Part shown: piece by piece, positions 28,391 through 48,683 of the stretch
Numbering within the stretch: the stretch's first letter is position 1
Layout of the letters: each line of letters opens with the position of its first letter
IMG/VR virus record: IMGVR_UViG_3300033062_002302
Reading direction: 5' to 3' (one strand)
DNA from: a virus
Taxonomy: Duplodnaviria; Caudoviricetes
Length of the DNA: 64,000 nt
Position numbers and translations under genes: made by a program
The notes under the pieces: generated by a model
Databases searched by the model: none
What the model was told of the DNA's origin: nothing
The model's input: the letters and a program-made list of their open reading frames with translations, nothing else

Positions 28391-28753
28391 ATGACTATCC
28401 CCATTAATGTAACGACTAAAGTTTTACCGAATACGAAGGGTCGTGATTTTAATTTTTATCAGAAAAAAGCAGTAACTAATACTACTTTTGGGACTTCTGC
28501 TGACGGTTATGCCGCAGACATGGTCATTACATTTTCTACTCAGTCTGTTATGTTTTTAAATGAGGGAACGACCAGCACCCAGGTTGTCGAATACTCTTTT
28601 AATGGAAATACGGTTCATGGAGAGCTTGACCCAAGTCTTCCTAGCAGGACATTCATGTTTGAAAATCGTGTTATTGGAGCTATCTGGTTTAGATTAAAAG
28701 CTGGAAGCTCAGGACCTGTTAATGTTAGGGTTGATGCCTGGAGTATTCGTTAA
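28391..28753 (+). CDS. Small beta-rich putative virion protein
   Basis: 120 aa, VEYSFNG..HGEL, ends VRVDAW; carries DGY. Confidence 0.6.
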   Translation: MTIPINVTTKVLPNTKGRDFNFYQKKAVTNTTFGTSADGYAADMVITFSTQSVMFLNEGTTSTQVVEYSFNGNTVHGELDPSLPSRTFMFENRVIGAIWFRLKAGSSGPVNVRVDAWSIR

Positions 28754-28796
28754 TAATCTAAGTCAGATACAATTATTCTGATATAGAATATGATAT

Positions 28797-29105
28797 ATGA
28801 AGTCGTTGATTTTAGATAAATGTGAAATAGAGGGCTGCGAAGTTACAGAGTGCCTACATAAGCATCACATTATTGAAAGAACTGAAATTAACACAAACAA
28901 TCATCCTTTAAATTTATGTATTCTTTGTCCAAATCATCATTCTTTTGTTCATGCCGGATTGTTAAAAATAATTGGCGTATTTCCTTCTACTAAGCCACCA
29001 AATGGAAGAACTGTGGTTTATGAATTGAATGGTAAAAGAAATATTGATATAGACGTACCATATATAGTATTTAAAAATAAATCATATAAAATATCTGGAG
29101 AATAA
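28797..29105 (+). CDS. Small HNH endonuclease
   Basis: CEIEGC...HKHHI...N...NLCILCPNHH..VH. Confidence 0.75.
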   Translation: MKSLILDKCEIEGCEVTECLHKHHIIERTEINTNNHPLNLCILCPNHHSFVHAGLLKIIGVFPSTKPPNGRTVVYELNGKRNIDIDVPYIVFKNKSYKISGE

Positions 29106-29402
29106 ATGGGACTTATTGATATTCATAACAAAATTGTTGACCCGGTTCCTGAAAAAAAGATTATGCCGGAACAAACCTATCGATTTAGATTGATGGAAGA
29201 GGCTAAATATAAAGGCTGCGCCAAAGAGCTTCAAATTATCTTTGATAAATATGATCGGTTGTTAAGAAATTGCACCAATCAAACGGAAGCCCAGCATATT
29301 GGAATGCTTGGAGTTCTAGAGGTTAGTAATCTTTTAGATAATGGTTATGTTGGTAAAGGTGGTTCATTAACTGTTAATGGGCAGATTATTAAGGCTGAAT
29401 AA
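29106..29402 (+). CDS. Hypothetical protein
   Basis: 98-aa ORF with GGAG SD, coupled to neighbours. Confidence 0.65.
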   Translation: MGLIDIHNKIVDPVPEKKIMPEQTYRFRLMEEAKYKGCAKELQIIFDKYDRLLRNCTNQTEAQHIGMLGVLEVSNLLDNGYVGKGGSLTVNGQIIKAE

Positions 29403-29620
29403 TGGAAGTTGTTTATTGCGGAGAAGTTTGTTGGTTTGCTAAAGCTTATGGATTTATCTCTTGGAGTATAGATGGTGTACCCCAAAAAGATTTATTCATT
29501 CACTTCTCTGATATTGAATCAGATGGCTTTAAAACTCTTGTTAAAGGACAAAAAGTTTCATTTAAACTAGGTTTAAATAAACACGGAGATCCTAAAGCTG
29601 TTAATTTAATAGTTATTTAA
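29402..29620 (+). CDS. Cold-shock domain protein
   Basis: GEVCWF..YGFI, DLFIHFSDI..DGFKTL..GQKVSF, P.AVN. Confidence 0.9.
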   Translation: MEVVYCGEVCWFAKAYGFISWSIDGVPQKDLFIHFSDIESDGFKTLVKGQKVSFKLGLNKHGDPKAVNLIVI

Positions 29621-30077
29621 CAAATGCTTTAATGGCTGCGCCAATTAAAGTAACACCAAAAGCGCTTAATATAATTATGAGACGGAAAAGCGATTTATCA
29701 ATGCTTTCCGTCTTTTTTTCTTCTTTTTTAATAATAGAATTAGTATCGATACCAGTCTCTTTAACCATAGTTAATGTCACGGCTAATGATTTGTTATACT
29801 CTTCTAATAATTCATTGTATTGCTTGAGCAATCGGTTAGATTCCGTAATGACTCGATTACAATCTTCTTGAAATTTAATCAGATTAGAAATTTTTTGTTC
29901 AATTTCGTTAGCAGATTCTTTGAATTCTTCGAGATTTTCAATGATTTCTTCATTTTGTTTTTCAACTTCAATGTTTATTTCAATTGATTTCTTATTAACA
30001 TCGAGAATGTATTTTAATTCAGAAGAAGTAAGCGCCTCTTCATCATTAAATCTTAGAGGTTTTTTATCTCCGACCAT
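29613..30077 (-). CDS. Coiled-coil protein with C-terminal transmembrane anchor
   Basis: E/K/N-rich heptad region; ends LFRLIIILSAFGVTLIGAAIKAFVK. Confidence 0.7.
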   Translation of the reverse strand: MVGDKKPLRFNDEEALTSSELKYILDVNKKSIEINIEVEKQNEEIIENLEEFKESANEIEQKISNLIKFQEDCNRVITESNRLLKQYNELLEEYNKSLAVTLTMVKETGIDTNSIIKKEEKKTESIDKSLFRLIIILSAFGVTLIGAAIKAFVK

Positions 30078-30091
30078 GTTACACTCTCTAT

Positions 30092-30615: not shown

Positions 30616-30688
30616 TGTATTCTCTGTAATTTGATATCTAAATATTACTAATCTAGCATTTAATTACAATTACTCTCTAGGATAAATA

Positions 30689-31024
30689 ATGAATATTTTA
30701 TACCATAGTCCAGGACAATTAGTCACTGTTCTGCTCGAAACTCTAAATCCTGATGGGTATCGAGCTGATGGTTACGCCGTTCCATCGGTCAATCGCATTA
30801 TTTTTCCATCTCTTGCTAACGCTTCTAGCTATCCTCAGAACATGGTTAAAATAGGCGAAGGGTTATATCGTCATTCTTTTACTTTACCGACCGGCGCATC
30901 AGCGGTCGGAAGCTATGTTGTTGATATTAAATATCAATTGCCTGACGATCCTACAATTAAGAGTTCTTTCGTTCAGGTCGTAGTCACGGCACCAGCAGGC
31001 AATTATTCAATTAGCTCTGGATAA
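30689..31024 (+). CDS. Small Ig-like virion protein
   Basis: G.G.Y...FT.P....G.Y beta-sandwich pattern, similar to the N-terminus of the next gene; two DGY. Confidence 0.6.
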   Translation: MNILYHSPGQLVTVLLETLNPDGYRADGYAVPSVNRIIFPSLANASSYPQNMVKIGEGLYRHSFTLPTGASAVGSYVVDIKYQLPDDPTIKSSFVQVVVTAPAGNYSISSG

Positions 31025-31044
31025 GCAATTTTAAGGAGATCAAA

Positions 31045-31938
31045 ATGTTGCGAGCCCGTGGTGAAACCTTAGACGTTACTGATCAAGTTAGTCTTATCGT
31101 TCAATTTAAAGATAATTATGGCAATCCGGCTGATACGGATGCTTTGCCGACTATTTCTATTGTTCAGCCCAGCGGAAACGTCTTATTTACGCCTACGACT
31201 GCTGGAGTCTCTAAGATTGGAACTGGTAAGTATAATTATATTTTTACCATTCCATTAACCGGACCATATGGAGTCTATCAGGATAATTGGTTTGGAACAA
31301 TTAATGGAGTTTATGTTCAAGCTAGTTTTAGCTTTGTTGTTGTTAAAACAGATACTCCGGCAATCAATTTAGATGGTTATTATCATCTAGGAGATATTTA
31401 TCCACTAAATTATTCTCAAACAGCCATACAAAATATAAATAAGCTTTTAAGAGTTTTAAAAGCTAGATTAAATAGCTCTGGGAAGACTAAAAGAGATATT
31501 AATGGCGAAGCGGCTTATATAGACTGTGACATCTTTTCAATTGATACGTTAGTAACAATGCTTGGATCATCTATTTCAGATTTCAATCAAATTCCGTACT
31601 TTACGAGCTATACTTTTGATGATACTGATTTCATTCAGCATTTTCTTGAAGTCTTAGTTGAAGGAGCGGTAATTTATGCCTTGGCTTCTCAGGCATTGAT
31701 TGAACGAGGAAGAGAATTTCAATTTACGGATAATAGCATTAATTTTAATCCTCCAAGCATGGCGGAAATATTGAATAGTCAAGCGAGCAGTTTATTAACG
31801 CTTCATCTTGAAAAGTTGAAATTGATTAAGAATTCTATGAGAAGCGCTCCTTTAGGATTGGGTCGTTACGGCATGACTGATGGTATCAGTCCAGCCATCA
31901 ATAGATTAAGACACAGGCGCGCAGGGAAAATTATATAA
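31045..31938 (+). CDS. Putative head-tail adaptor (neck) with N-terminal Ig-like domain
   Basis: Helical C-terminal domain with 'DFN..P..T.Y' and 'F.DNSINF' in neck-gene position. Confidence 0.55.
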   Translation: MLRARGETLDVTDQVSLIVQFKDNYGNPADTDALPTISIVQPSGNVLFTPTTAGVSKIGTGKYNYIFTIPLTGPYGVYQDNWFGTINGVYVQASFSFVVVKTDTPAINLDGYYHLGDIYPLNYSQTAIQNINKLLRVLKARLNSSGKTKRDINGEAAYIDCDIFSIDTLVTMLGSSISDFNQIPYFTSYTFDDTDFIQHFLEVLVEGAVIYALASQALIERGREFQFTDNSINFNPPSMAEILNSQASSLLTLHLEKLKLIKNSMRSAPLGLGRYGMTDGISPAINRLRHRRAGKII

Positions 31939-32027
31939 TGATATCATGTATTTACCAAAAGACAGCTGTCTTGAGATTAATTATATCATGCTATTATTAT
32001 CACATAATGTAATAATAAGGACATGCA

Positions 32028-33785: not shown

Positions 33786-35351
33786 ATGGTTTATTACTTT
33801 AATCCGGTTAATCAAGGGATTATTTCTGCGGAAAGCAATGGAGATGGATATTCCGTTGTTTTAAAGTGGAATATCGCTTATCCGACCGTCAGGACTAATA
33901 AGCTCGCTTACCACATTTACATGTCTACCGAAGAAGATACGGTCTTTTCGGAAGGTGTCAAATTTATTTCTTTTGGAACGAGCACAACCACCGAAATTTT
34001 TGATCTTGAACCTGGGCAAATGTATCACTATGCCGTCAGAGCAATTGAATATAATGAATCAACTTTTGATCTCTCTCTTCCAACTCTAGATAATGGTTTA
34101 AAAATTTACCCTCAGAGTCTCCTCCGAGCCGATATTTCTGCTAATGCAACACTTATTACATTATTAGACTCTAGCGAATTTCCTATTAAAGGAATTGTTA
34201 AAATAGGAGTTGAGTTAATAAATTATTCGAGTAATGATTTATTAAATAATAATTTAAATCTTCTTAGTTCTGTTATTCAAAGAGGTTTTAGTAATACTAA
34301 TCCTAGAATGCATCAGACGGATGGTTATGATGGTTATAATACTTGGAGCCCTTACGTTACTTATACATTAGGTAGAGATGAAGAGGCAAATACTCGGATA
34401 TTCTCTATTCAAAATAGATTTGATGGTCAGTATACTTATACTGAAGATGATGGCTATTATCAAATTACTAAAGATATTTTAACGACCGATTTATCTGGAG
34501 CAGACGCTTCAAACATTAATTTTCCTAGTTATGATTTTGCTGGTTGGCATCGAACAGACCCGGCTGATTTATTTTCTGGAGCTTGTGTTGGTAGTTATTT
34601 TGGCGGTCAATCTGGATGTGCAGATGGCTTTACGGTTCGAGGATTATCTGTTCAGGATCAAAATAATCAACGTGAAGAAATGCTATTAGATATAACCGGA
34701 GAGGCAGTTTGTCTTCTTCGGAAACGTTGGACTGGAATTACTTGTTCATGCTATTTGCCATCTAATGAAAATGCAGACGCTCGATGTCCACGATGTCTTG
34801 GCGGCAAATTCATTATTAGTTGGGATCAATATTTTAATCCAAGACGTTCTGATGGGCGTATTATGGTTCGCTTTTCACCAGCAGACGATGAAGTCAAAAA
34901 ACAAGATTTTGGTTTAGAATCAGACTTTTCAACAGATTGTTGGACTCTAACAGTTCCAACTGTTAAGGACTGGGACATTATTGTTCGTTTTGATCAAGAT
35001 GGAAATGAAGAATTTAGATATGAAGTCATGTCTGTCAATCGGAATAAAACTTTATTTGGGTTGCAAGGCGCTCAGAAATTTAAAGTTCAAAGAATTAGAA
35101 GAACGGATACGATTTATCAGGTTCCTGTCTTCCGAGATACCTCGACTCTTCCGGCTAAAATGAACACTTCTATTAGTTCTGCTTCTGGAGTTGGACCCCA
35201 CATGCACGAATTTATTACAACAAATCAAGCAGTTGGCAATTTTGGTCAAATCACAAGCGTTTCTCAAGGTCATTCTCATCAAATCAGATATGTTAATGGT
35301 CAATTAACTGTTTTAGAGGTTCTCGGTCACACTCATACGTTAGTTTTGTAA
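33786..35351 (+). CDS. Putative head-closure/neck protein with FN3-like N-terminus, Cys cluster and HxH tail
   Basis: L.W...YHIY...DLEPGQMYHYAVRA (FN3); GE.V.L..KR.TG..CSC...CPRCLG; DIIV...RYEV..V; HMH/HSH/HTH at the end. Confidence 0.55.
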   Translation: MVYYFNPVNQGIISAESNGDGYSVVLKWNIAYPTVRTNKLAYHIYMSTEEDTVFSEGVKFISFGTSTTTEIFDLEPGQMYHYAVRAIEYNESTFDLSLPTLDNGLKIYPQSLLRADISANATLITLLDSSEFPIKGIVKIGVELINYSSNDLLNNNLNLLSSVIQRGFSNTNPRMHQTDGYDGYNTWSPYVTYTLGRDEEANTRIFSIQNRFDGQYTYTEDDGYYQITKDILTTDLSGADASNINFPSYDFAGWHRTDPADLFSGACVGSYFGGQSGCADGFTVRGLSVQDQNNQREEMLLDITGEAVCLLRKRWTGITCSCYLPSNENADARCPRCLGGKFIISWDQYFNPRRSDGRIMVRFSPADDEVKKQDFGLESDFSTDCWTLTVPTVKDWDIIVRFDQDGNEEFRYEVMSVNRNKTLFGLQGAQKFKVQRIRRTDTIYQVPVFRDTSTLPAKMNTSISSASGVGPHMHEFITTNQAVGNFGQITSVSQGHSHQIRYVNGQLTVLEVLGHTHTLVL

Positions 35352-35384: not shown

Positions 35385-37007
35385 ATGGGAAATTATAATA
35401 AAGGAATAGGATCATTAGGCGTTTCTCGCTATGATTTTCAAAAACATATTGAAGGAACTGATTTTAAACATCAAGCTTCTGGGATTGATCTATCAGATCC
35501 CTTATCTGAACTCGGAAATGCAACTAACCTTCAAGACGCCTTTGATAATCTCAATGATTACATAGAGATACTCAATAATGCTGGTCAAGGAATGGTCACG
35601 GTTGGTGACGGGTATGATACTTGGCATAATGCTGATGGTAATATTAATTATGATAATACTATTCCTTCTTTAAATCTTATATTAAAACCAATTTTTGATG
35701 CTATCATCAATAATACTGCTTTGCCTGCTGCTTACTCCAGAATCAAGCGAGGCGGCGTTATGGTCATCAAGGCAGGAACGTATACGGTTACAGATACAAT
35801 AGACGTTCCTGCGGGCATTACGATTCTGGGCGAGGGTTGGGGAACTAAGATTGTCAATGCGACTTCTCTTGACCTAACGATTTCTCCTCCGAATATTGAT
35901 ATGGGCGGAACGCCAAAGCCAATTTTTAGAGTCAAAGTTGATTCTAATCGTTCGACAAATGATACGGCTATTGATGCCAGCCTTTTTATGTTTAGTCGTC
36001 AAACCAAGATTGCAAATTTAGTTATTGCCGATAACTTTGTTGAAAACACTATTTTAGGCGATATTTACTATAAATTGCCTCAAAATAAAACGGGCGATAC
36101 GCCTTTGATTTCTCAGGAGGCTGGATCCAATCTAGTTCTTGAGAATGTCATGATGATTGGACGAGTTACATTTTCAAGCGGAAAAATTGTTAGTGCGGCG
36201 ACTCGCTTTGGAGTTCAACTCGATACTTCAACGGCTATTACAACTGGAACTTTTCTTCAATTAAATAAATGTTTTATGGACGGATTTTCTCAGCCAATTT
36301 CTTATTCTAATATTGGTGGTTCTGAAGACTTTTTAGAAGTTGTTAATTCTAGAATTAGAAGTCACGGCTATTTGGATGGATATCAAACAGAAAAAGAAAA
36401 AAATTGTATTGTTTTTTCTAATGGTTGTAATACTAGATTAGTTTCAAATCATTTCTTTGGAAATCATTCTTATTCAAGCACGATTTTATATATAAATGAT
36501 TTTATTTCAGGCTCAGTTTTTGGACAAAATAAAGCTAAAGTTTTAGTAGCCAGCAACGATATTGTTATTAATAAGGGAACTTCAACGATTGCAGACTTTT
36601 TTGCAGTTTATGTTAATCCAACTAATTTAACGTCTTCTTATACTAAGGCAACAATTCAAACATTTGGAAATCATTATCAACCACAATATGGTTTTGAGAT
36701 TGATTCATCTTTCAGAGTAAGAACGAATACAGTTTCTGGCAATTATACATTAGATGGTTATGGCGGCGATTATATTGTTTTAGTTGACACTTCAAGCGTT
36801 GCTGCGAATATTGATTTGCCGATTCATGTTAAAGGTCGGCAAGTTATTATCAAAGATATTTCTCAGAATTCATCTGTTAATAATATTACAGTTACTAGAT
36901 ATTCTAATACTGGAGAAATTGAAGGTTATGCTGGGGATAGAGTCTTGGCAACAAATGGCGCGTCTTGGACTTTGGTTAGTTCTGGAACCAATTGGTATTT
37001 AATTTAA
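35385..37007 (+). CDS. Fibre/spike protein with pectate-lyase-like beta-helix
   Basis: GGVMVIKAGTY.V...I.V..GITILGEG..T.I; C-terminal DYIVLVDTS..I.LP...GRQVIIKD module. Confidence 0.7.
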   Translation: MGNYNKGIGSLGVSRYDFQKHIEGTDFKHQASGIDLSDPLSELGNATNLQDAFDNLNDYIEILNNAGQGMVTVGDGYDTWHNADGNINYDNTIPSLNLILKPIFDAIINNTALPAAYSRIKRGGVMVIKAGTYTVTDTIDVPAGITILGEGWGTKIVNATSLDLTISPPNIDMGGTPKPIFRVKVDSNRSTNDTAIDASLFMFSRQTKIANLVIADNFVENTILGDIYYKLPQNKTGDTPLISQEAGSNLVLENVMMIGRVTFSSGKIVSAATRFGVQLDTSTAITTGTFLQLNKCFMDGFSQPISYSNIGGSEDFLEVVNSRIRSHGYLDGYQTEKEKNCIVFSNGCNTRLVSNHFFGNHSYSSTILYINDFISGSVFGQNKAKVLVASNDIVINKGTSTIADFFAVYVNPTNLTSSYTKATIQTFGNHYQPQYGFEIDSSFRVRTNTVSGNYTLDGYGGDYIVLVDTSSVAANIDLPIHVKGRQVIIKDISQNSSVNNITVTRYSNTGEIEGYAGDRVLATNGASWTLVSSGTNWYLI

Positions 37008-37014
37008 GGAAACG

Positions 37015-39051
37015 ATGACTTATTCTGGAAATTTAAATATAACTAAGCCAAACACTGTTAAAATACCAGCTGTTACACAATCTATTGTAACGCCTGAATG
37101 TCCAGAACCAAGCTTTGGCACGACCTTTGCGATGCAATATTATTACGATGATAATAATATGTATTTTGTTAATAAAAAAACAATTAAATCATCTATAGAT
37201 AGTATTATAAATGGAAGTTTGGTTGGTAATGCTCAAGTTGCCGGAACGTCTTACTTTTTAAGTAATATTTATCCTACTCCAATAAATGGATATTTTTATT
37301 GTTTTTCAATGCTGGACGAGACTTCTGCTGGCGTTGGAGGTAATATTTTACGCGCTTCAGTTGATTCTCCTTTGGCTTGGTATGATACTGGTGTTGTTTC
37401 GGATAGTAATGCTGTTAATCCAACAATTTATGAAGACGGATATAATATTTATTTGTTTGGAGGTTTAGTTTCAGGGGTAGAAACTGATGCGATCGATGTT
37501 GCGCCAATTGCAGACCCAACAAATTTTACCACATCTGTAAATACTTTACCAGCCGCCACAGCTTATTCTGCTATCACTGTCGCCGGATCTAGAATTTATT
37601 TGTATGGCGGATCCTCTAGCTCTTTATCGGATGCTAAAGATGAAATTTGGAGCGCTCCCCTTAGTGATCCAACAGATTGGACTATAGAGTCAAATACTTT
37701 ACCAGCACCTATATATAATGCAGCTATTTATAATGATGGTACAACTATTTATTTATTTGGTGGCATTGATCCGATGGGGCTTGGAATACTAGATACTATT
37801 TATTCTGCTCCAGTATCAGATCCTACTAATTTTACTCTTTTAGGCGGAACTTTACCAACTTTTATTGATAATCCTCGGGTTATTGCAAGTGGTGATTATC
37901 TTTATCTTTTTTCAAGCGCTTCTTCTACTCCGTATAAGGCAGAATTATCTGATTTACAAACTTGGACAACAACGGAAGTTACTCTTTCAACAGTTACAAA
38001 ATCATCTCATTTAATTCAAGATATTGCAAATAATAAATTATACAATATTGGTGGATATGACGCTTCTGGGTTGCCTCAAGCAGCTATTCAGAGTGCTGAT
38101 TTAAATAACCCAGTTGAATGGATTGATGAAGTCTCTTCTTTTACAACTGATATTGCCGGTGGCGAAGTCATTAAAACAAAAGATTATTATTTTATAGTTG
38201 GTGGCGAAGGTGTAACAGGTGGGGTTTATCAAACTTTAATTTCCGATCCTTTATCATTTTCAATATTACCTGGTACTGGACCAACTAGAAGTAATGGTAG
38301 GGCTTGCTTTATTGACGACCAGCTATTTTATTTTGGCGGGCAACAAGATGACGGATATGCCTTAGCAGATGTTAGCCGAGCAACTATTGATGGACCCAAT
38401 TTATATTGGAGAAATGAAGAGGCTGGAGATTTCAGCATAAATTTACCGATAGCCTTGACTCAATTCTCATTAATTGTCGCCGGTCCATATGTTTATATTT
38501 TAGGAGGTCATAGTGGATATTCTACTATGAATTCCAACATTTATAGATGTTTAAAAAATAAATTAGTTGCTGGACCGACTCAGGATTTTACTTGGGAAAA
38601 CGTAGGAACATTATCAACTCCAACCGTTGACGCCTCTGTCGTTGTTATTAACAATTTTGTTTATATTGTTGCAGGCGGAAATGATGGTTTCGGAGGACCT
38701 CAAGTCGCCTCAACTAAACAAATTACTTATGCTTCTCTTTCTGATTTAGCAAATGGTAAAGCTAATTTTACAACTGAAATTATTGTTGATACTATTGCAT
38801 TTGCTCAATCTAAAGCAATTTGTTTAAATGATGTAATATATTTTATAGGTGGTCGCGTGGCAGCGACTGGGTCTACTACAACCAATAAAATTTTTAAAAC
38901 AGACTGCGAAAGTATACATACTCTGATATCACAGAAAGTCCCGGAATTATTAGAAAGCTTACCAACAATAGACAATAATTCTGGTGCTTTGGGTACTTAT
39001 TCGTCCTTTCAAAGGACCGGAATGTTGCCATGGCTTGTAAGTAATAAATAA
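37015..39051 (+). CDS. Kelch-repeat beta-propeller protein (putative virion)
   Basis: About 11 repeats of (I/V)Y(L/I)xGG...W/F, e.g. IYLFGG, IYLYGG, LYNIGG, FYFGG, VYILGG, IYFIGG. Confidence 0.8.
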   Translation: MTYSGNLNITKPNTVKIPAVTQSIVTPECPEPSFGTTFAMQYYYDDNNMYFVNKKTIKSSIDSIINGSLVGNAQVAGTSYFLSNIYPTPINGYFYCFSMLDETSAGVGGNILRASVDSPLAWYDTGVVSDSNAVNPTIYEDGYNIYLFGGLVSGVETDAIDVAPIADPTNFTTSVNTLPAATAYSAITVAGSRIYLYGGSSSSLSDAKDEIWSAPLSDPTDWTIESNTLPAPIYNAAIYNDGTTIYLFGGIDPMGLGILDTIYSAPVSDPTNFTLLGGTLPTFIDNPRVIASGDYLYLFSSASSTPYKAELSDLQTWTTTEVTLSTVTKSSHLIQDIANNKLYNIGGYDASGLPQAAIQSADLNNPVEWIDEVSSFTTDIAGGEVIKTKDYYFIVGGEGVTGGVYQTLISDPLSFSILPGTGPTRSNGRACFIDDQLFYFGGQQDDGYALADVSRATIDGPNLYWRNEEAGDFSINLPIALTQFSLIVAGPYVYILGGHSGYSTMNSNIYRCLKNKLVAGPTQDFTWENVGTLSTPTVDASVVVINNFVYIVAGGNDGFGGPQVASTKQITYASLSDLANGKANFTTEIIVDTIAFAQSKAICLNDVIYFIGGRVAATGSTTTNKIFKTDCESIHTLISQKVPELLESLPTIDNNSGALGTYSSFQRTGMLPWLVSNK

Positions 39052-39551: not shown

Positions 39552-42500
39552 ATGACCAGTAACTTCCCCAATACGCCGGATGACGATGTCTCCCTTCCGC
39601 GCGTAGAAAACAATATTACAGAAATCGGCAGCGAAGCAATTAATGCTTTACGCGATGCTGTTTTTAATATTGAAGAAGAAATTGGAACTATTTTAGACGG
39701 TTATTCTGCTCGCGGGTCCAAAAACTCTATTGGCGCTCGCTTGGGTGTATCTATTGAATATGATGGAACTATAAAGCCATCTGCTTTAACAAGCTTGGGT
39801 CTTGTTACCCTTCCAATTACCAATAGTCAAATTTCTGCTTCAGCCGCCATTGCCGAATCAAAATTAAATCTTGATTACAGCACTTATTCGCTGTATAATT
39901 TAATTTCAAATGTTAATACTTCCGTTAATACAGCTTTAAATTTTATTACTAATACTGGATCTAAAGTTGAGCCTCATTTAAGTGGAGCTGGATTTAAACA
40001 CACGTTATCTCACATTAACGTTGGTGCCACGTCAAGTTTCTTTAAAAATAAGAAAGCCCTTTTTAGAAATAACACGAACCTTTATACTCTTCTTGATGAT
40101 ATTAACTCGGATTATGTTGGACATCAAAAAGCAGATGGGACAGTTTTAGCAAGTGATGTAACAAGCTTGTCAACTGGAACGGTTCCTCCGGATAATTATG
40201 CACACGTTGCTGCTGGTATTAATATTAACACCAATAATTTTTCATTTATTCCTCAAACTGCCAATGATTTACAGCAATTTGCTCAATTTATTGACAATTC
40301 AAATATATTTATTCTTGGAACTAGAATTCAAACATTATACAATAATGGTATTCCAAGAGCGTCTAGGTCTTCGGCTTTAAATACAAGTGTTTCTGGTCAA
40401 AATATTATTCTGGAATCATTAGGAACGACCTATCTCCTAGATTCAGGAAGCTCGGTTCCAGTTGATAATATTGATACTGGCGACGATGTCATTTCATTAA
40501 CCCCAACCTCAGGAACAGCAAATCATACCTTTGACGCCAAGTTTGCTTTAGTTAAAGCTGGCGATATCGCAACGGTTAATTACGGAAATGTTTCTGTTTC
40601 TTTTATTATTAAAGAAAAGAAATATGTTGTTTCTGGTTTAAATAAGACTTACATAATTAGAATTAATGGCAAAAACTTATTGCCAACGACTTCTGCTCAA
40701 GTTAGCATTGATCGTCCATTATTCAATACAGACAAACAAGGTGTTTTGGCTCTTGGTATCGCTCCATTGCCAGCGGCTTTGCCAGGCGTTTATCCATCTT
40801 TAACTGTTGGCAATCCTCGTGGAGCTGAGGTTGTAAGCGTTGCTTTTAACCCCGATCTTTTGGATGGAACTCATTACAATCTTTATCTTCAACTCTTCTC
40901 TACCGGCAATCCATCAGAGTCTACTTTAAGTTTAGCTGCGGTTGATGTCACTGGTAATCTTGGAACGACTCCAGGAAGTTATACCCTTGATTCTGTTGTT
41001 GAATCGATGAATGCTGCTTTCAGAAAGCCAGGATTCAATTATCGTTTCATGGCTTTTTCTTATAAAGGCGAATTAGGATTAATGTTGTCTGATTCGGTCG
41101 GAGGAGCCAGCTTCTCTATTATTTCAGGAGCCGTCGCTTCTTCTGGAGCTTATGATCAAACTTTAACCAACACTTTATATCCAAATAACGTTATTGGATT
41201 ATTTGATGGAAAAGACGGGTTAGGCTTTGGACCATCTAATGCTGCGGTTGCGAGCCCCGCTTATGCTAGTAGCTATTCAACGTCAGATGCCTCTCAGGTT
41301 CCAACTAAAATTTTCGTTCCATTAACCAAGAAAACGTATTATGTTAATGGAGTTGAACGAGAGCGCCTTAACTTAGAGCCAAATCAATCAATTGATGGTT
41401 ATGGAGATGGATACTGGGAAGCAACAATTACGGCTAAAGTGATTGTTCCTGGAACAAGAGTCAAAGTTACCTATCAGGTTAATGCTGATTTAACAACTTC
41501 TAGTCTTAAGCCAGGCAAAACGATTCTAATTCAAAAAGAATCTTCTGGAACCCAATCAGATTTTGGTCGATATGTTATCGAAGATATGCAATTTAACAGT
41601 TGCATTTGTGATGGTTACACCGAATATGTTACTTTAACCGTTTATGATGCCGTTCATGGAACAGGAATTACACCATACTTAAGCTCTAACGTTGGAACTA
41701 AGGTTAGAATTTATTATTCTGGTGATTCCGTTAGCTTTAATAATCAAAATGTTAATGATGTAAGCGCGTTTACAGATTACAAGCGCTCTTTTGAAATTTT
41801 GATTAATCAGAATGGTTTGACCTTCTCGCATGAACGCGCTCGAATGAATGTAACCGGAGCAACTCAGATTGTCAATGGAGTTTCTCTTTATAGCTCATCA
41901 GAACTAGCTTTTGCCAATATCTATAGGGTTTCTCCAAAACTTCGTGGCTATTCTTTTGCTTCAGTTAAAAAAATTAACTTAACAATTACAAGTTATAACG
42001 TTAACTCTGGAACTTTTTCAGGCTATCTATGCCGTTGGGACGGTTCCGTTGAAACGAGTCTTGGTCCTGTAACAGTAGGTAAAAAAGGACAGGTTGTTAG
42101 ATTCTATGATGAAACAAACATTGATTTCATTGATATTATCTTTAATCAAAATGATGCTGTTCCAGCTATTAACGCAACAAGAAGAATAGACATTCAATTA
42201 TTTGGAACATTATCTCTTGATGACGAAGTTATGCTTCTAGGAACGTGTCAGGTTGCTGATAGCGTAAAGAAAATTACATATTTGCGCGATGAACGTCAAT
42301 TTGGTAACGTTAGTGAAAAACAATTAACTAACTCTGCTCTTGATTATATTGCTGCACCAACTCAGCTTCTTTCTGAAAATGGAATCATACGCGGATTTGA
42401 CGTTGTTAGTATCCCATCGGGAGCTAATCCATATCCTAACGTTGTCGCCGTTAAAGGCGGAACAGCTGTTATTAATGGTAAAATCATTCAAGTTAACCAC

Positions 42501-44012
42501 CAAAACATAGCGTTGCCAGTTGTACAAGAAACGTTATATCCAGCCTTTACAACGAACGTCAATACAATTAATTGGTTTGTATGTGTTAATGATAAAGCAG
42601 AATTAGAATTAGTTGCGAATACTGATTATGATTCAAGCGTTACGACTTATTCTGGATTAGGTCTTGATCATACACGAATGTTTTATGTTCAAAATCCAAA
42701 TCTAACAACGCCGGTCCCTTATTGTATTAAAGGAAACTATTTAGACTCTTTAATTAATACTAATAAAGATTTGGTTCCGATTGCTTTAATAACCGCCACC
42801 ATTTCCTCTCCTTCTGGCACTTATGTTATTACTTCTTGTACATCATTAGATGTTCGTAGATTTATTGGAAATGGCTATGCTGGAATGGATAATGTCTTTA
42901 CTCTTGGACAAAATGCCAACTTTAGAAGCATGGAGTCATTAACAACTTGGCTAAATCAGCTTATTAATTTGAATTCAAAAACTACTACCAGTAGTCTTGG
43001 TAAAACTGTTTTAGTCAAAGGTATTAATACAATATCTTCTTCCTACTATTTAGATTATAAATCTAAGGTTACATTTAAGGGAGACAATGGTTCTTTTAAT
43101 GTGACTACAGGAACTGGATTTAATCTTGGAAGCAATGTTACTTTTGAAGATTTAAATATAAATTATAATTATGATGCAACTGCCGATGGAGCTTTTGACA
43201 ATGCTAAATTAATTAATTTCAGCAAGTCTTGTTTTAAAATGACTGGATCATCAACTCCATTAAAAAATATTAATTTTAATAATTGCATATTTGCATCGCC
43301 ATATGATAAGAGATTTTCTTTTATTAGTTGTGTTTTATCTGGACAATCAGACCAAGTAGAAAATTTAGTTATTAAAAATAATAGATTTGAAACAACGGCA
43401 ACAAGCCCTGGTTCATTAGCTGATAATGATGCTGTAATTGCAATTGTTACGACTAATACGACAGCTCCAACCAGTTTAACTGGCGCTCGATTGACTAATT
43501 GCACTATTGAAAATAATATTTGCAATAAAAATCAAATGATTGCTATTACGGCTCCATATGGAGCAACTATTGTAGACGCAATTGTTCCTGTTAATTTAAA
43601 GATTGTTGGAAATACATGTGGAGCTATTAACTTTTGCTTTAAACAAGATATTCCTTTAAGCACCGTTAATCCAGATGTTTTATCTGATAAAGAGGCTAGT
43701 GCGTTGATATCAAACAATAATTGCAGATACATTTATACTGGCAATAGCTCGGGATACATTAATGAATCGGCAACATCTAATAGAATGATTTCTAAATTAG
43801 CGTTTTATACTCCAAACATTACTATTTCAGAAAATACTGTTAGTTGGATTCATACTGGTCAGAGAATTCCTCTTAATTATGTTAGAGAAAACGCAAGTTT
43901 TATTGTTAGAAACAATAAATTAACGGCTTATCCAACAGCTTTGCTTGATATTTATTGGACAGGCATTTCCGGATTGAATTACGCAATGATTACAGATAAG
44001 GCGGTCGGATAA
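39552..44012 (+). CDS. Large structural protein (collar/fibre, C-terminal beta-helix-like region)
   Basis: N-terminal FP...DD...INALRDAVFNIEEEIG neck/fibre-type helix; N/T/S-rich beta repeats; four DGY. Confidence 0.6.
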   Translation: MTSNFPNTPDDDVSLPRVENNITEIGSEAINALRDAVFNIEEEIGTILDGYSARGSKNSIGARLGVSIEYDGTIKPSALTSLGLVTLPITNSQISASAAIAESKLNLDYSTYSLYNLISNVNTSVNTALNFITNTGSKVEPHLSGAGFKHTLSHINVGATSSFFKNKKALFRNNTNLYTLLDDINSDYVGHQKADGTVLASDVTSLSTGTVPPDNYAHVAAGININTNNFSFIPQTANDLQQFAQFIDNSNIFILGTRIQTLYNNGIPRASRSSALNTSVSGQNIILESLGTTYLLDSGSSVPVDNIDTGDDVISLTPTSGTANHTFDAKFALVKAGDIATVNYGNVSVSFIIKEKKYVVSGLNKTYIIRINGKNLLPTTSAQVSIDRPLFNTDKQGVLALGIAPLPAALPGVYPSLTVGNPRGAEVVSVAFNPDLLDGTHYNLYLQLFSTGNPSESTLSLAAVDVTGNLGTTPGSYTLDSVVESMNAAFRKPGFNYRFMAFSYKGELGLMLSDSVGGASFSIISGAVASSGAYDQTLTNTLYPNNVIGLFDGKDGLGFGPSNAAVASPAYASSYSTSDASQVPTKIFVPLTKKTYYVNGVERERLNLEPNQSIDGYGDGYWEATITAKVIVPGTRVKVTYQVNADLTTSSLKPGKTILIQKESSGTQSDFGRYVIEDMQFNSCICDGYTEYVTLTVYDAVHGTGITPYLSSNVGTKVRIYYSGDSVSFNNQNVNDVSAFTDYKRSFEILINQNGLTFSHERARMNVTGATQIVNGVSLYSSSELAFANIYRVSPKLRGYSFASVKKINLTITSYNVNSGTFSGYLCRWDGSVETSLGPVTVGKKGQVVRFYDETNIDFIDIIFNQNDAVPAINATRRIDIQLFGTLSLDDEVMLLGTCQVADSVKKITYLRDERQFGNVSEKQLTNSALDYIAAPTQLLSENGIIRGFDVVSIPSGANPYPNVVAVKGGTAVINGKIIQVNHQNIALPVVQETLYPAFTTNVNTINWFVCVNDKAELELVANTDYDSSVTTYSGLGLDHTRMFYVQNPNLTTPVPYCIKGNYLDSLINTNKDLVPIALITATISSPSGTYVITSCTSLDVRRFIGNGYAGMDNVFTLGQNANFRSMESLTTWLNQLINLNSKTTTSSLGKTVLVKGINTISSSYYLDYKSKVTFKGDNGSFNVTTGTGFNLGSNVTFEDLNINYNYDATADGAFDNAKLINFSKSCFKMTGSSTPLKNINFNNCIFASPYDKRFSFISCVLSGQSDQVENLVIKNNRFETTATSPGSLADNDAVIAIVTTNTTAPTSLTGARLTNCTIENNICNKNQMIAITAPYGATIVDAIVPVNLKIVGNTCGAINFCFKQDIPLSTVNPDVLSDKEASALISNNNCRYIYTGNSSGYINESATSNRMISKLAFYTPNITISENTVSWIHTGQRIPLNYVRENASFIVRNNKLTAYPTALLDIYWTGISGLNYAMITDKAVG

Positions 44013-45046
44013 TGGCTTTGACGACAACAATGTCTAATACTTTAATTGATGGAAACGTCTTTACTGATGGCTATTCTTCTGCTAATGGCACAACAGTAGT
44101 TCATTCACAGTATAGTTATCTTCTTCTTAATAGTACAGACGCTAAAATTACCAATAATACTTTTTCTGGTCAAGCATCAAACGTTCTTAATGATATGGTT
44201 GAGCTACAAAATTGTAGCACGATGATATCTAATAATAAGTTTTTGAGATTTAATAGCACCGTCAAATCATTTATCAATAATACATCTTCTACGGCAGATC
44301 AAATAATTAAAGATAATTTATTTGATAATTTAACATGCGATAGTTCGACAGATTATGAAATTGTTAAAGGGTTAAATACAACTTCCATTTATAATAGCAA
44401 TAAAAATCAATCGTCTTATGCTTTATTTATGATGGAAGATCAAGGAATTTCAGGGGTTTCTAGTGAACCGTGGTATTGGACTACAACTAATAATTTTTCA
44501 ACTCAAATTACTCAATATTTTGGAACTTCTGAAATAAATAGCGTTTATGTTTTAAATGGTGTCATTCTCACAGCAGGCAATAACGCTGGTTTAAATAGAA
44601 ATTTAAATTTATATGTTAATTTATCTAAATCTTTGCCAAAAAATGTTAAAATATTAGAAAGTCTAATTGGATTTAGATTTAATCAAATTGGTGCAAACCT
44701 TAAAATAGATGAAGCCTCTACTATTTCAACTAATCTTTATAAGACATTAGCTTCTAGGCTAATTAATAATCCATTTTCGACTCCGGCTAATACTTTAGCT
44801 AGAATTCATAGTGGAGTAATTAATAACCTTGAAAGCCCATCTACATCTTCTGTTGTTATTTCTGGACCAGATTATGAAACAACAACGACTAAATATATAG
44901 CCGCCGATTATTCTGCTTTAAATTATATAACTGGCGAAACTCAAGACATTATTATTAATTTTAATTATGATTTTAAGACTGAGGCGTCTTCGGCTGCGTC
45001 AGTTTATTTGCTATCTCCACTCTTAATTAAATATCAGTGGGTCTAA
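44012..45046 (+). CDS. Beta-helix-like structural protein
   Basis: I.(G/N)N.F repeats continuing the pattern at the end of the previous ORF; coupled via TAATG. Confidence 0.55.
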   Translation: MALTTTMSNTLIDGNVFTDGYSSANGTTVVHSQYSYLLLNSTDAKITNNTFSGQASNVLNDMVELQNCSTMISNNKFLRFNSTVKSFINNTSSTADQIIKDNLFDNLTCDSSTDYEIVKGLNTTSIYNSNKNQSSYALFMMEDQGISGVSSEPWYWTTTNNFSTQITQYFGTSEINSVYVLNGVILTAGNNAGLNRNLNLYVNLSKSLPKNVKILESLIGFRFNQIGANLKIDEASTISTNLYKTLASRLINNPFSTPANTLARIHSGVINNLESPSTSSVVISGPDYETTTTKYIAADYSALNYITGETQDIIINFNYDFKTEASSAASVYLLSPLLIKYQWV

Positions 45047-45844
45047 ATGGCAATTAATAATTTCTTCATTTCGGATCTTCCAAAGATCTATAATGTAGTT
45101 CAAAATTCAATGATTGTTTATCCTAAGGAATTGGCAATTGCCGTTCTACGGGACCATTTTTCTGATGATAGCTATTATCATTTCTCTAAAGACGCCTGGG
45201 GTTTCCCTAATACCCCAGATCATACCGATCTTCCAAGCGAAGCCGGAATCAATGATAACGTTACAACGCGTCTTTTTATTGGAGAAAATTACCGTGATAA
45301 TGTAACCTATTTTCCAGCCATTTTGATTAAAAATTCTGGAATGAAGTCAGTTCCAATTGGATTGAGCCGCGAAGAAGGCACGGTCAAATGGGGAATTAGA
45401 ACTTTTGATGATGGATATGGAAACCTATCTTTCTTTAAAAATCCTGAGAGTCTTATCTTTGCCGGAGCTTGGGAAGGGACTCTTTCGATTGATATTATTG
45501 CTCGAAGCACTCGAACAAGAGATGAATTAATTCAGGAAGTAGCCCTCTGTTTTACAGACCTTAAATTTAAATTAATGCATAAAGCAGGCGTTCTGTGCAA
45601 ACCTTTAGACGTTTCTTCTCCTACCGAATCTGATGATAGGAACGGAAAGCTTTTTAAACAAACAATTACAATTCCAATTAGAACAGAGTGGAAAAGAGAG
45701 ATTCCAGTTTCAAATATTGTTCAAACTATTAATTTTATTATAGAATTTGGATATTTAGAAGTTCCAGAACCAATTATTGCGCAAAACTTAACGATTAGAA
45801 CTAATATAGAATTATTAGATATTTTGGCAAATTTGGAAGTCTAA
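45047..45844 (+). CDS. Putative tail terminator/completion protein
   Basis: FPAILIK, SIDI.ARS...RDEL; immediately upstream of the sheath gene. Confidence 0.6.
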   Translation: MAINNFFISDLPKIYNVVQNSMIVYPKELAIAVLRDHFSDDSYYHFSKDAWGFPNTPDHTDLPSEAGINDNVTTRLFIGENYRDNVTYFPAILIKNSGMKSVPIGLSREEGTVKWGIRTFDDGYGNLSFFKNPESLIFAGAWEGTLSIDIIARSTRTRDELIQEVALCFTDLKFKLMHKAGVLCKPLDVSSPTESDDRNGKLFKQTITIPIRTEWKREIPVSNIVQTINFIIEFGYLEVPEPIIAQNLTIRTNIELLDILANLEV

Positions 45845-45932
45845 CTAGGAAATACTAATATAACAGTAAATAAGTAATATTTTAGTATTTCAACAGGCAG
45901 AGAAGCAAGCAGCTTTTTACTAAGGATCAAAA

Positions 45933-48683
45933 ATGAGTGGAAATATACCCGGATCAGGTGGAAGTGTTTTACCCGGAACATTTACCGATGTTGTAACCCA
46001 ATCTCGCGGTGCTTCAATTCCCGGTGGTGTCCGGATTGCTGCCATCATAGGCGAAGGTTCTAGAAGCGAAGTTATTGTCTCTTCCGCTCTTGGCGGCGGT
46101 TCAGATGGCTTTAATTCAACTTATACTTCTACCTCTGGAGCAGACGGTCGTCACTTTGTTTTATCTACCGCTCCCGTTATCTCAAATAGAACCTCCCTTT
46201 TCCGAAATGGCTTGCCATTGGTTGGATTAGAGGAAGTTCCTAGCAGCTCAGCTTTTAGCTCTGCTTATGATTATCGTATTGATATAGATACTGGTCGAAT
46301 TGAAATGCAAAAAGCATTTCTTCAGGATCTTGGCGGCGCATTCTTCACTGCCTCTACCTTAAACGTTGGCGATGGTTATATTGCTAATTTAACTCTTTCT
46401 GATGTAAATGCTCCTTCTGAAACCTGGACTATTAAGTGTGTTTCAGTTCAAAGAACGCCACTAAATGCTCCAATTGCTGGAACGGCGAAGTTCGTTGCGT
46501 TTGGTTCAATTTCAGGTCAAAAACTTGATGCGAATGGTAATCCTGTCTTTTGGATTGCAAATGGAACCTCCGCGACTAATGGCGTTTTAACTTTTAATCT
46601 TTGGGAAAGTAATTCTGGAGCGACTCCGCTTCGTGAAGGCGATTTCTTTACGGTTAAAGTCAAGAGCGGTGTTTTATCTAAGAATGATACCTTGACGGCA
46701 TCATATATTCCAACCTTAAGTGTTAATGACCCAGAGTTTTTACAGACTCCAGATGATGTTTTGAATAAACATGGCTTGGCTAGCACGGACAATACTCTTG
46801 CTCTTGGTTGCCAGCTTGCTTTTGCAAACTCAGCTCCTGGAATCATGTGTGTTCAAGCAGCTCCTGCCATGGCTCGTAGGACCTCATTCCTTCTGTCAGA
46901 TGGCGTTAGAGCTTTATCTCAAGATGAGTCAGATTTTATCTTTGCTCTTCCGGTCGGCGTTCAACCATATCTTGACTCACAGATTCACTTCTTTGTCAAG
47001 AACAACACGACCAATGTAGAGACTCAGGTTCTTCCAAACAAATTTGATTATTATCAATTAGATGAATCTGGTCAACCTACGACTAATGATTTTATCTTTG
47101 ATGATACTAATGCTCCTTCCGGATACTCTTTCAGCTATACGGTAGTATCTCTTCCAGCCGCTATTGCGACTGGTCTTGATGGCTATTTGGCTCGGAATAC
47201 GACTGGTGCAGGACATGATGGTATTTTCAGTGGCAATAACTTGTTCGATTCAACTTATGTTGGAAAGACCTTAAAAGTTATCGATGCTAATAACGTTGGT
47301 AACAATGGTTCTTTCGTTGTCACTGCTGTAACCAATGGCGACCTTTACTTTACCCAAGCGACTTTTGCTGATTTTACTTCAGAAAGCTCTGTTTCTTTCG
47401 AATTAATCAATCCTGCAACTGGAGCGGCTTTAGATGACGGCGTTGATGGCGTTCTAACCAATAACATTGGAACTGGAACGGCTTCATTTGCCTCAGCTTC
47501 AGTTGACTTTACTTCCTTTACTCCAGTTGGGAAACGTCTCCAGATTAATGGAACGGATGATAATGACGGATTGTATGATATCACGGTAGTTGATGGTAGC
47601 GATGTCTTAACGATTGCTAAAGTCTTTGTTGAAGAGACTGATTTACGATATGAAGTCATTGATACTGATTCAGAAAGCTTCTATGTTGTCATTAACCATA
47701 ACGTTGTTCCTAATGGATATTCATTAAGAGTCAATTTGGTTGATGATCGTGACGCCAGCTTCTATGATACTGGTTGGATCAATGCTCTTGAATCTCTTGA
47801 GACTCAAGAAATTGATATCTTGGTCGCTCTTCCGAAACAAACGATTTCAGCTATCTTCCAGAATGCTCTCAATCATTGTAAGACGATGTCAAACATTGTC
47901 AACAAGAAAGAGCGCGTTTTATTCTGCGGAGCTATCTCAGGCTTGAAGCCAGCAAACTTGACCGGCGCACAACCTGCGGCAGTTGAAGACATTGGATTGC
48001 TTGAGGGACTTCAAGGCGATGAGCCTTCAGAAGTCTTAGCGGGTTCTATCGAGGATTTAACGAACTATTCAGTTCCAGATTCTTTCGGAACGACCTTTAG
48101 AAGCACCTATTTCTATCCTGACCAGATTGTTGTTCAGGCTGGAACAGATAACGTTCTTTTAGATGGTTTCTATATAGCAGCGGCAGCGGCTGGGTATCTC
48201 TCAGCTTCAACCAATGTTGCGATTCCATTGACCAACAAGACTCTTTCTGGATTCACGATTCTCCGGAGTCGTCAGTATAGCAACTTGGTCTTGACTCAGC
48301 TTGTTGAGGCTGGTGTTACGGTCCTTCAGCCGATTGCGGGTGGTGGACGAGTTATCTGGGGTCTAACGACCACTCAGAGCGGATTCGTAGAAGAACGTGA
48401 AATCAGCATTGTTTTCATTCGAGATCGTGTAGCTAAATCTCTTCGTGGAGCATTCAATGGATTCATTGGTCTTCCAGAAGATTCTACTACGATTGCAACG
48501 CTATCAGCACGAGCAATTGGAGCGATGAACGCTTTCGTTTCTCAAGGATTGATTACGGCGTTTAAAGATGTAAATGTTGAACGAGATTCAGTTGACCCTG
48601 GGCAATGGAATATCGCGGTGAAAGCACAGCCAACATATGGAATTAACTTCATTTATATTAAAGTAAGCCTCGGCTTGTTATAA
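45933..48683 (+). CDS. Contractile tail sheath protein
   Basis: N-terminal PGTF; AIIGEG; HCK.MS....KER; C-terminal WG.TT...EISI..IRD...P.Y.INFIYI. Confidence 0.9.
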   Translation: MSGNIPGSGGSVLPGTFTDVVTQSRGASIPGGVRIAAIIGEGSRSEVIVSSALGGGSDGFNSTYTSTSGADGRHFVLSTAPVISNRTSLFRNGLPLVGLEEVPSSSAFSSAYDYRIDIDTGRIEMQKAFLQDLGGAFFTASTLNVGDGYIANLTLSDVNAPSETWTIKCVSVQRTPLNAPIAGTAKFVAFGSISGQKLDANGNPVFWIANGTSATNGVLTFNLWESNSGATPLREGDFFTVKVKSGVLSKNDTLTASYIPTLSVNDPEFLQTPDDVLNKHGLASTDNTLALGCQLAFANSAPGIMCVQAAPAMARRTSFLLSDGVRALSQDESDFIFALPVGVQPYLDSQIHFFVKNNTTNVETQVLPNKFDYYQLDESGQPTTNDFIFDDTNAPSGYSFSYTVVSLPAAIATGLDGYLARNTTGAGHDGIFSGNNLFDSTYVGKTLKVIDANNVGNNGSFVVTAVTNGDLYFTQATFADFTSESSVSFELINPATGAALDDGVDGVLTNNIGTGTASFASASVDFTSFTPVGKRLQINGTDDNDGLYDITVVDGSDVLTIAKVFVEETDLRYEVIDTDSESFYVVINHNVVPNGYSLRVNLVDDRDASFYDTGWINALESLETQEIDILVALPKQTISAIFQNALNHCKTMSNIVNKKERVLFCGAISGLKPANLTGAQPAAVEDIGLLEGLQGDEPSEVLAGSIEDLTNYSVPDSFGTTFRSTYFYPDQIVVQAGTDNVLLDGFYIAAAAAGYLSASTNVAIPLTNKTLSGFTILRSRQYSNLVLTQLVEAGVTVLQPIAGGGRVIWGLTTTQSGFVEEREISIVFIRDRVAKSLRGAFNGFIGLPEDSTTIATLSARAIGAMNAFVSQGLITAFKDVNVERDSVDPGQWNIAVKAQPTYGINFIYIKVSLGLL

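Follow-up and report, generated by a model that had tools for sequence, protein, structure and literature searches.

An Asp-Gly-Tyr tripeptide concentrated in outward-facing virion proteins of a large-phage clade, a candidate glycosylation sequon

Why would a single tripeptide, Asp-Gly-Tyr (DGY), recur in neck, collar and sheath proteins that are otherwise dissimilar? The question is posed by a 64,000-nt stretch of DNA (the window, below) of the 239-kb single-contig phage record IMGVR_UViG_3300033062_002302 (genome GC content 0.33-0.35), in which ten putative structural proteins contain DGY 21 times. The original prediction, made from the letters of the window, saw in the motif a short recognition signal on exposed parts of the virion, either an acceptor for the glycosyltransferases encoded nearby or a binding site for a decoration or fibre protein. 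Analysis of this genome and its relatives suggests that DGY does behave as a signal of this kind, separates it from the neighbouring glycosyltransferase locus, and leads us, tentatively, to another phage glycosyltransferase as its reader.

Enrichment of DGY in the outer virion proteins

Translation of the open reading frames (ORFs) of the window reproduces all 21 occurrences of DGY and their Asp codons (Table 1), in ten proteins that sum to 5278 amino acids (aa), as had been claimed, and also the further occurrence in the gene starting at 62529. A single DGY in an HNH gene is likewise present, though the position first given for it, 50072, is the start of the gene, and the Asp codon is at 50117. 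All other ORFs of the window are DGY-free. The rough early estimate that 1-2 occurrences would be expected in the ten proteins agrees with the 1.12 computed from per-protein composition. A first-order Markov model gives 4.06, and even against this value the Poisson probability of 21 occurrences is 2.5e-9; merging of the tandem motifs leaves 18 independent clusters. The controls with shuffled sequences that the original prediction had proposed point the same way, with at most 8 DGY in 20,000 residue shuffles. DGY tops all tripeptides in the ten proteins (z ~19, runner-up 5.4), while the sibling tripeptides NGY, EGY, SGY, DGW, DAY and DSY are at expectation, and DGF occurs 5 times against 1.2 expected. 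The proteins are indeed mutually dissimilar, with no pairwise BLASTP match at E<=1e-3.

The excess is found in the peptide and not in the DNA. Within the DGY genes, all 39 matches to the degenerate string GAYGGNTAY are in frame 0, with none in another frame or on the opposite strand, which rules out a DNA-level motif, and the codons chosen for DGY roughly follow the genes' own usage, with some excess of GGT for Gly. Both observations bear out the earlier view that selection acts on the peptide rather than on a DNA repeat. In the whole genome record there are 55 DGY against 10.2 expected. Two giant proteins of 2375 and 1252 aa, encoded just past the window, have 12 and 6 of these, together 18 against 0.84 expected, and the early/replication arm of this genome is neutral (2 observed, 3.5 expected).

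Sheath-based scans of IMG/VR and of JGI metagenomes yielded ~170 related loci with GC content of 0.25-0.46; IMG/VR alone holds at least 278 relatives. The sampled habitats are soil, sediment, freshwater and marine, and the complete relatives have genomes of 410-480 kb. In all of the ~170 loci but one, DGY is enriched 5-20 fold in the genes that precede the sheath and in the sheath gene itself, and the genes downstream are nearly DGY-free. Summed over the DGY-rich families of these relatives, 860 occurrences are observed against 58 expected. These include the families of the 1486-aa protein (346 against 26, or 13x, in 83 relatives), the sheath (280 against 18.6, 15x), the 265-aa protein (108 against 6.6, 16x, in 120 relatives) and the 521-aa protein (66 against 3.0, 22x, in 39 relatives). 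The ratio of observed to expected is 21.6 for the 297-aa family over 5 relatives, and a 367-aa fibre-like family has 24x the expected number; counts are smaller in the families of the 540-aa protein (7 against 1.3) and the 344-aa protein (4 against 0.8). The 120-aa protein, which matched no Pfam or PHROG family, has orthologues in relatives G001 and G003 that likewise carry DGY, those of the 111-aa protein in G003, G005, G012 and G013 have 1-3, and orthologues of the 711-aa baseplate-region protein have 0-3. The Kelch protein had no orthologue among the four large relatives compared, and is an addition to the DGY block specific to its lineage. In a second sub-clade, G011-G015, whose sheaths are shorter, the pattern is the same.

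The inner tail proteins present the opposite picture. In the families from the tube to the 1622-aa protein, only 2 DGY are observed across the relatives where composition predicts 31 and the Markov model 28; the 1622-aa family by itself has none against 17.3, and the tube-like family none against 3.2 in 105 relatives. An HNH gene interspersed among the inner tail genes (50072-51103) was excluded from this set. In the inner families DGY is the 5th lowest of 4163 tripeptides, though DG-x and x-GY are common there. The early/replication arm upstream of the capsid gene is neutral, with 8 DGY against 11.4 expected. A separate peculiarity of the inner tail families (49433-62144 and relatives) is DGH, with 96 occurrences against 9.7 expected, probably owing to one conserved motif.

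Outside the clade, the outer tail proteins of T4 have 4 DGY against 1.22 expected, and the sheath-to-baseplate genes of Bacillus phage G, which by its capsid protein (52.5% identity) is the nearest relative in culture, have 1 against 1.34. Another region of phage G, gp420-431 (JN638751.1 316783-347675, L381), holds 14 against 2.2. A free-standing tag was ruled out in this case, as two repeated homologous motifs account for 9 of the 14 sites; phage G thus shows how an ordinary homologous repeat can bear DGY. The giant proteins gp424-427 have NGRHT-DGY-WYVRG in common, and gp420, gp423 and gp431 have LV-DGY-xVKxGGN.

The sole DGY-free relative is a 21.5-kb record (IMGVR_UViG_3300033069_001735, here L011), with no DGY in 5771 aa of syntenic tail genes and a sheath of 44% identity. 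Its 265-aa orthologue has QDVHTGQ where others have the conserved DGY. Searches of IMG/VR, JGI metagenomes and 5.8 billion proteins found no close kin of it. The only other DGY-free sheath, P0053, was considered as a second such relative and rejected, since it sits in a DGY-rich genome. It was not possible to identify this clade with the 'moraphage' lineage (PMC12619734; 200-307 kb).

Character and turnover of the sites

What is recognizable in a DGY site beyond the three residues is very little. The flanks of 478 non-redundant sites hold at most 0.16 bit per position, and a clear rule emerges solely at +1, where Pro is avoided (0.1x). A repeated domain would have left more similarity around the motif and among the ten proteins, and the original prediction had itself pointed to the conserved turn of one repeated fold as a reading that would undo its proposal; flanks as random as these, in proteins unrelated to one another, speak against such a turn. 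They are of the type expected of a short, exposed acceptor motif with little flanking context.

The sites are also mobile. In 49 diverse sheath homologues there are 18 DGY columns, all within residues 61-568, that is, in the outer inserted domains; neither the conserved core nor the N-terminal arm of these sheaths has a DGY column. Mapped on a tree, the sheath columns require at least 43 gain or loss events. In 58 diverse sequences of the 1486-aa family, 73 of 79 DGY columns are occupied in fewer than 10% of sequences, and some have arisen by insertion. Sequences that lack the motif in a DGY column have gaps, or D, N, S, T or G, instead. This turnover, in indel-prone loops of outer domains, resembles that of the sequons of glycan shields. 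The 2375-aa protein has a tandem domain pair in which one copy has AGQ and EVGF where the other has DGY, and the fold therefore does not depend on the motif.

Substitutions of the tyrosine are of particular interest. Phe makes up 1.6-4.4% of the alternatives at the Tyr of DGY; at the remaining Tyr columns of these alignments it is the commonest alternative, with 15-38%. Because Phe so rarely replaces this residue, the hydroxyl group of Tyr seems to matter.

Predicted structures, in which exposed loops had been expected, agree with this picture in part. In the AlphaFold model of the sheath (pLDDT 81), the sites are in the outer domains and most DGY columns are at a loop-to-strand boundary; the near-universal site at residue 416 is inside a predicted strand. 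Site 20 of the 521-aa protein is in a hairpin loop of a predicted fn3-like N-terminal domain, and its sites 179, 182 and 222 fall in a region with pLDDT below 50 of a model that is poor as a whole (pLDDT 60.6).

The combined evidence on the sites excludes chance and a repeat in the DNA as the source of the pattern, and likewise a repeated fold or generic turn. It indicates selection for the tripeptide itself on exposed outer parts, with a role for the Tyr hydroxyl, together with selection against it in inner virion proteins. With random flanks, rapid turnover, placement in the outer domains of the sheath, intolerance of Phe and avoidance in inner proteins, DGY behaves as the short recognition signal that it had been suggested to be.

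Glycosyltransferases and other candidate readers

The glycosyltransferases first proposed to act on DGY are encoded between the capsid gene and the DGY block. This locus (9597-27503) comprises a 2572-aa collagen-like protein, a LamG protein, a 1082-aa fusion of a glycosyltransferase family 2 (GT2) domain, a methyltransferase and a glycosyltransferase family 4 (GT4) domain, with a weak TPR match after the N-terminal GT2 region, then a second GT4-like gene and deoxysugar enzymes. Among the relatives, only the closest, G001, has orthologues of it. From the capsid to the patatin gene, G003 and G005 are colinear with this genome; they lack the locus, and are equally DGY-rich or richer (81 DGY against 9.2 expected in G003). 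Co-occurrence across related phages had been suggested as a check on the link to these neighbours, and equal enrichment in relatives without them, which the original prediction had said would argue against that link, is what we found. Judging from gene content, then, the locus is not required for the tag, and the 1082-aa fusion, which this phage shares with its closest relative alone, is ruled out as a general reader of DGY. The Thr/Ser-rich collagen next door is a more likely target of the locus. The collagen-like gene itself (9597-17315) is a GC island of 0.51-0.53, and the N-terminal GT2 part of the fusion (18159-21407) has the SunS-type family TIGR04195 as its best NCBIfam match (E 1.6e-16; 60 bits against a cut-off of 350). 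The loss of this link is not a refutation of glycosylation as such.

A second cluster of glycosyltransferase genes begins 25 bp after the 1252-aa gene and contains a GT4 gene (373 aa), a GT2 gene, a gene for a 321-aa protein, another GT2 gene and an NDP-hexose 4,6-dehydratase gene, followed by TubZ and UvsW. The 373-aa protein matches Pfam PF13439 and PF00534 and has an E-x7-E motif whose E264 and E272 are invariant in 8 orthologues; by these features it has the GT-B domains and the motif of a retaining glycosyltransferase of family GT4. It has no hydrophobic or predicted transmembrane segment, and a sequence search of PDB returned a generic GT1 match only. All 39 distinct loci with the 1252-aa gene have GT4 as well, and so do 13 of 13 long records (this genome, G002, G003 and G006-G015), some of which underlie those 39 loci; in locus L295 it is full-length by tblastn. 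Its position at the end of the tail module is conserved, with small ORFs intervening in a few relatives. One sub-clade, in which TubZ is not preceded by the cluster, was examined as a counter-example and dismissed, since it is DGY-rich and has its GT4 elsewhere at the end of its tail module. Phage G had no match to the GT4 profile. The dehydratase (L058:8711-10810, minus strand, ~21.5-23.6 kb past the end of the window) has 699 aa, with an intein (PF14890) at residues 141-496; its orthologues have ~320 aa and no intein in most other genomes examined, and ~695 aa in L345/L350. The 321-aa protein (L058:11640-12605, minus strand) is conserved. It has a membrane anchor at its N terminus, a stretch resembling a coiled coil and, at the C terminus, a beta-rich domain whose last residues are VGL or VGF; it matched no known family, and an Atlas search gave viral hypothetical proteins only.

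That some trans-acting reader of DGY exists appears probable, mainly because the motif is shunned by the inner virion proteins but occurs at a neutral level in the early/replication arm. We infer that this reader is GT4, that Tyr is the residue modified and that the mark is a sugar. The reading that we put forward, tentatively, is that the tail-module GT4 reads DGY as a sequon for glycosylation of the virion, with Tyr as the probable acceptor. DGY would be a three-residue acceptor on solvent-exposed turns of the outward-facing parts, i.e. the neck, collar, outer domains of the sheath, peripheral baseplate and fibres. Late in infection, the soluble GT4 would recognize the Asp-Gly turn and put a sugar on the hydroxyl of the Tyr that follows; the adjacent dehydratase would supply GT4, and the two GT2 enzymes would extend the product in most lineages, so that the tail acquires a glycan coat. 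Inner proteins, such as the tube and those of the tape-measure or hub region, would avoid the motif because a sugar there would block assembly. Somewhat more doubtfully still, GT4 may be a new kind of cytoplasmic, protein-directed tyrosine O-glycosyltransferase, with which the clade writes a glycan coat on the outside of its tail in a three-residue code, and keeps the code off the inner parts.

A number of points weigh against this reading. Modification of DGY is a prediction from sequences. The link between GT4 and DGY fits, if weakly, the presence of GT4 in DGY-rich genomes and its apparent absence from phage G; GT4 is present in every DGY-rich genome or locus in which the end of the tail module could be examined, but so are hundreds of other genes, and co-occurrence is nearly uninformative. 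The only DGY-free close relative, L011, is a fragment that ends short of the glycosyltransferase region, and phage G is distant. The GT2 genes are absent from several lineages, and the complete genome G006, which is DGY-rich despite having no detectable GT2 domain, indicates that they are dispensable. The cluster, with its membrane-anchored, beta-rich 321-aa protein, could serve the modification of DNA or of the host envelope instead. The major capsid protein, the largest surface of the virion, has no DGY, and some sites may be structural, given the nearly universal sheath site in a modelled strand. To our knowledge, cytoplasmic protein glycosyltransferases that act on Tyr are rare among those known. 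The Tyr glycosylation of S-layers is carried out by an extracytoplasmic oligosaccharyltransferase (PMC2943079).

Other explanations have to be set against the same data. The exposed turn could serve as a docking motif, bound non-covalently by a phage decoration protein, fibre, whisker or assembly factor that coats or organizes the outer tail. Enrichment, random flanks, outer placement and intolerance of Phe are accounted for equally well by docking, and so is inner avoidance, since inner proteins would otherwise be bound before assembly; the strictly conserved sites, namely that of the 265-aa protein, sheath residue 416 and GDGYW in the 1486-aa protein, are what one would see in stoichiometric contacts. 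Most sites, however, are lineage-specific and shifting, which is unusual for contacts in a symmetric assembly, and no candidate reader was found: the collagen, LamG and Kelch genes are absent from most DGY-rich relatives, and the small conserved genes of the DGY block occur in DGY-free L011 as well. We consider docking unlikely. A different covalent modification of Tyr or Asp (phosphorylation, sulfation, nucleotidylation, oxidation or cross-linking, or isomerization of Asp-Gly) draws its strength from the fact that the motif evidence shows only a reader and a role for the Tyr hydroxyl, and that the connection to a glycosyltransferase is one of co-presence. It seems improbable to us in view of the annotated genes in or beside the structural module, among which, in the part of the genome that is annotated, there is no kinase, sulfotransferase or like enzyme, and because no enzymes other than GT4 and the dehydratase are conserved where the tail module ends.

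Two explanations do without a phage reader. DGY may be a patch with intrinsic affinity for a ligand, in which Asp forms bonds and Tyr stacks on a sugar, metal or host polymer, so that a virion has many weak adhesive sites. Multivalent weak adhesion would go well with surface placement, turnover, preference for Tyr over Phe and the steady number of sites in each protein; yet strong avoidance in the hidden proteins of the inner tail is not predicted, a tripeptide with random flanks makes a poor binding site, and the capsid surface lacks the motif, so this reading is rather improbable. Alternatively, DGY may be no more than an architectural element, a type I' beta-turn at Asp-Gly with an aromatic residue that starts a strand, or the turn of one repeated fold. 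The many sites at loop-to-strand boundaries, a mild 2-3x excess of DGY in the rest of the proteome and in T4 outer tail proteins, and the repeat-borne motif of phage G are in keeping with this. But NGY, DGF, DGT and DGW are not comparably enriched, the flanks are random and the ten proteins unrelated, beta-rich inner proteins shun DGY while using DG-x and x-GY freely, the same fold occurs with and without DGY (as orthologous columns and the tandem domain pair of the 2375-aa protein show), and Phe does not replace Tyr. A purely structural turn is therefore largely refuted and, in our opinion, highly improbable.

Known systems and the gene neighbourhood

The glycosylation reading can be compared with several known systems. 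Virions of mycobacteriophages are glycosylated by phage-encoded glycosyltransferases (Freeman et al. 2023, as cited in PMC12619734). As far as that account goes, the likeness lies in phage glycosyltransferases that stand beside structural genes and would modify the phage's own virion proteins in the cytoplasm; the same adjacency is seen here, GT4 coming directly after the last DGY-rich baseplate gene. Unlike the present case, the glycans described there are at the C-termini of the capsid and tail-tube proteins, whereas here capsid and tube are DGY-free and the sites are internal. The candidate sites of this clade are in loops of neck, sheath and baseplate proteins, with Tyr as the likely acceptor.

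Three-residue sequons are otherwise represented by N-X-S/T and by the D-(S/T)-(A/I/L/V/M/T...) motif of general O-glycosylation in Bacteroidota (PMC8698959). DGY shares with them the length, the scant flanking context, the disfavour of Pro and the gain and loss on exposed surfaces, and the Bacteroidota motif also begins with Asp. Those sequons, however, are used outside the cytoplasm, on Ser, Thr or Asn of envelope proteins; DGY is on phage particles assembled in the cytoplasm, and the proposed enzyme is a soluble GT4 that would use nucleotide sugars directly. Tyr O-glycosylation is known in S-layer proteins of Paenibacillus alvei and Thermoanaerobacter (PMC2943079), where, similarly, a Tyr-linked glycan decorates a self-assembling surface protein, often through rhamnose-containing adaptors made from dTDP-sugars. 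The S-layer glycan differs in being built on a lipid carrier and moved by a membrane oligosaccharyltransferase, in occupying few sites per protein and in being non-viral, and no consensus motif is named in that paper. The peptide-directed SunS-type family (TIGR04195) is the one best matched by the 1082-aa fusion, albeit at a score far below the cut-off.

Chlorovirus PBCV-1 encodes its own machinery of sugar-nucleotide enzymes and glycosyltransferases, including multidomain glycosyltransferase-methyltransferases, and uses atypical acceptor sites. It is a virus of eukaryotes, its linkage is to Asn and its target is the major capsid protein, in all of which it differs from the DGY case. The multidomain glycosyltransferase-methyltransferases resemble the 1082-aa fusion of the window. 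Glycosylation of the PBCV-1 capsid by virus-encoded cytoplasmic enzymes is among the examples mentioned in PMC5852040. No system compared here unites a D-G-Y motif, targets on the outer tail and a soluble phage GT4, and a full-text literature search for DGY with phage and tail returned nothing relevant.

If the glycosylation reading is true, DGY would be a general sequon on a phage particle, the first to be described, and a rare case of cytoplasmic protein glycosylation directed to Tyr. A widespread clade of phages of about 400-480 kb, in soil, sediment, freshwater and the sea, would coat its contractile tail with sugar, which bears on host recognition, on resistance to proteases or grazing and on recognition by bacterial defences. 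The motif also gives a rule, applicable to sequence data, that separates outward-facing from inner virion proteins in unannotated genomes of the clade. Even if the reader is a binding protein or another enzyme, a three-residue motif that has arisen convergently on dozens of occasions and is eliminated from inner proteins clearly signals new biology.

Table 1. Genes and loci of the window, with the Asp codons of DGY and family matches
Feature	Position	Strand	DGY (Asp codon)	Match
Major capsid protein	5127-6137			PHROG 2522, E 3.5e-76
Collagen, LamG, glycosyltransferase and deoxysugar locus	9597..27503	+		Pfam and NCBIfam
120-aa protein, 3' of patatin gene	28391..28753	+	28502	
111-aa protein with tandem DGYRADGY	30689..31024	+	30752, 30767	
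297-aa neck or connector-like protein	31045..31938	+	31372	weak PHROG head-tail connector
521-aa virion protein, including DGYDGY	33786..35351	+	33843, 34320, 34329, 34449	
540-aa protein	35385..37007	+	35607, 36375, 36753	
678-aa Kelch beta-propeller protein	37015..39051	+	37435, 38350	PF24681, E 6.7e-21
1486-aa structural protein, including DGYGDGY	39552..44012	+	39696, 41394, 41406, 41610	
344-aa protein	44012..45046	+	44066	
265-aa protein, one clade-wide conserved site F-(E/Q)-DGY-GN	45047..45844	+	45410	
916-aa tail sheath	45933..48683	+	46371 (residue 147), 47178 (residue 416)	
Contrast set: tube-like 206-aa, then 250-, 105-, 713-, 285-, 1622- and 648-aa inner tail genes	49433..62144	+	none	
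711-aa baseplate-region protein, start only (runs off window)	62529..63998	+	63864	

The order of genes is capsid, the collagen/glycosyltransferase/deoxysugar locus, patatin, the DGY block through the sheath, and the DGY-free tube-like and inner tail genes; past the window, a gp6-like wedge protein is encoded in addition to the giant 2375- and 1252-aa proteins. The gene at 45933-48683 is a contractile tail sheath by its core domains and fold: Pfam PF04984 and PF17482 match at residues 721-912 (E 1.9e-4 and 2.1e-5, both under the gathering scores), PHROG gives a tail sheath match (E 1.3e-15), and Foldseek finds the fold of the sheaths of phi812, T4 and P1, with E down to 4e-14.

The conserved C-terminal half of the 521-aa protein has a Cys4 arrangement (CxC...CxxC) and three H-x-H motifs (PPHTH, GHNHP and GHTH), which we take to resemble the metal-binding H-x-H motifs in T4 fibre proteins. 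The sequence of the window differs from the corresponding stretch of the genome record at 2 of 64,000 bases. Genes of HNH, endonuclease VII-like or CapR-domain type are scattered in the structural module (3794-4987 on the minus strand, 7528-8037, 21408-22751, 48692-49396 and 50072-51103), and their copies or relatives are found at differing places in related genomes, as would be the case with mobile homing endonucleases.

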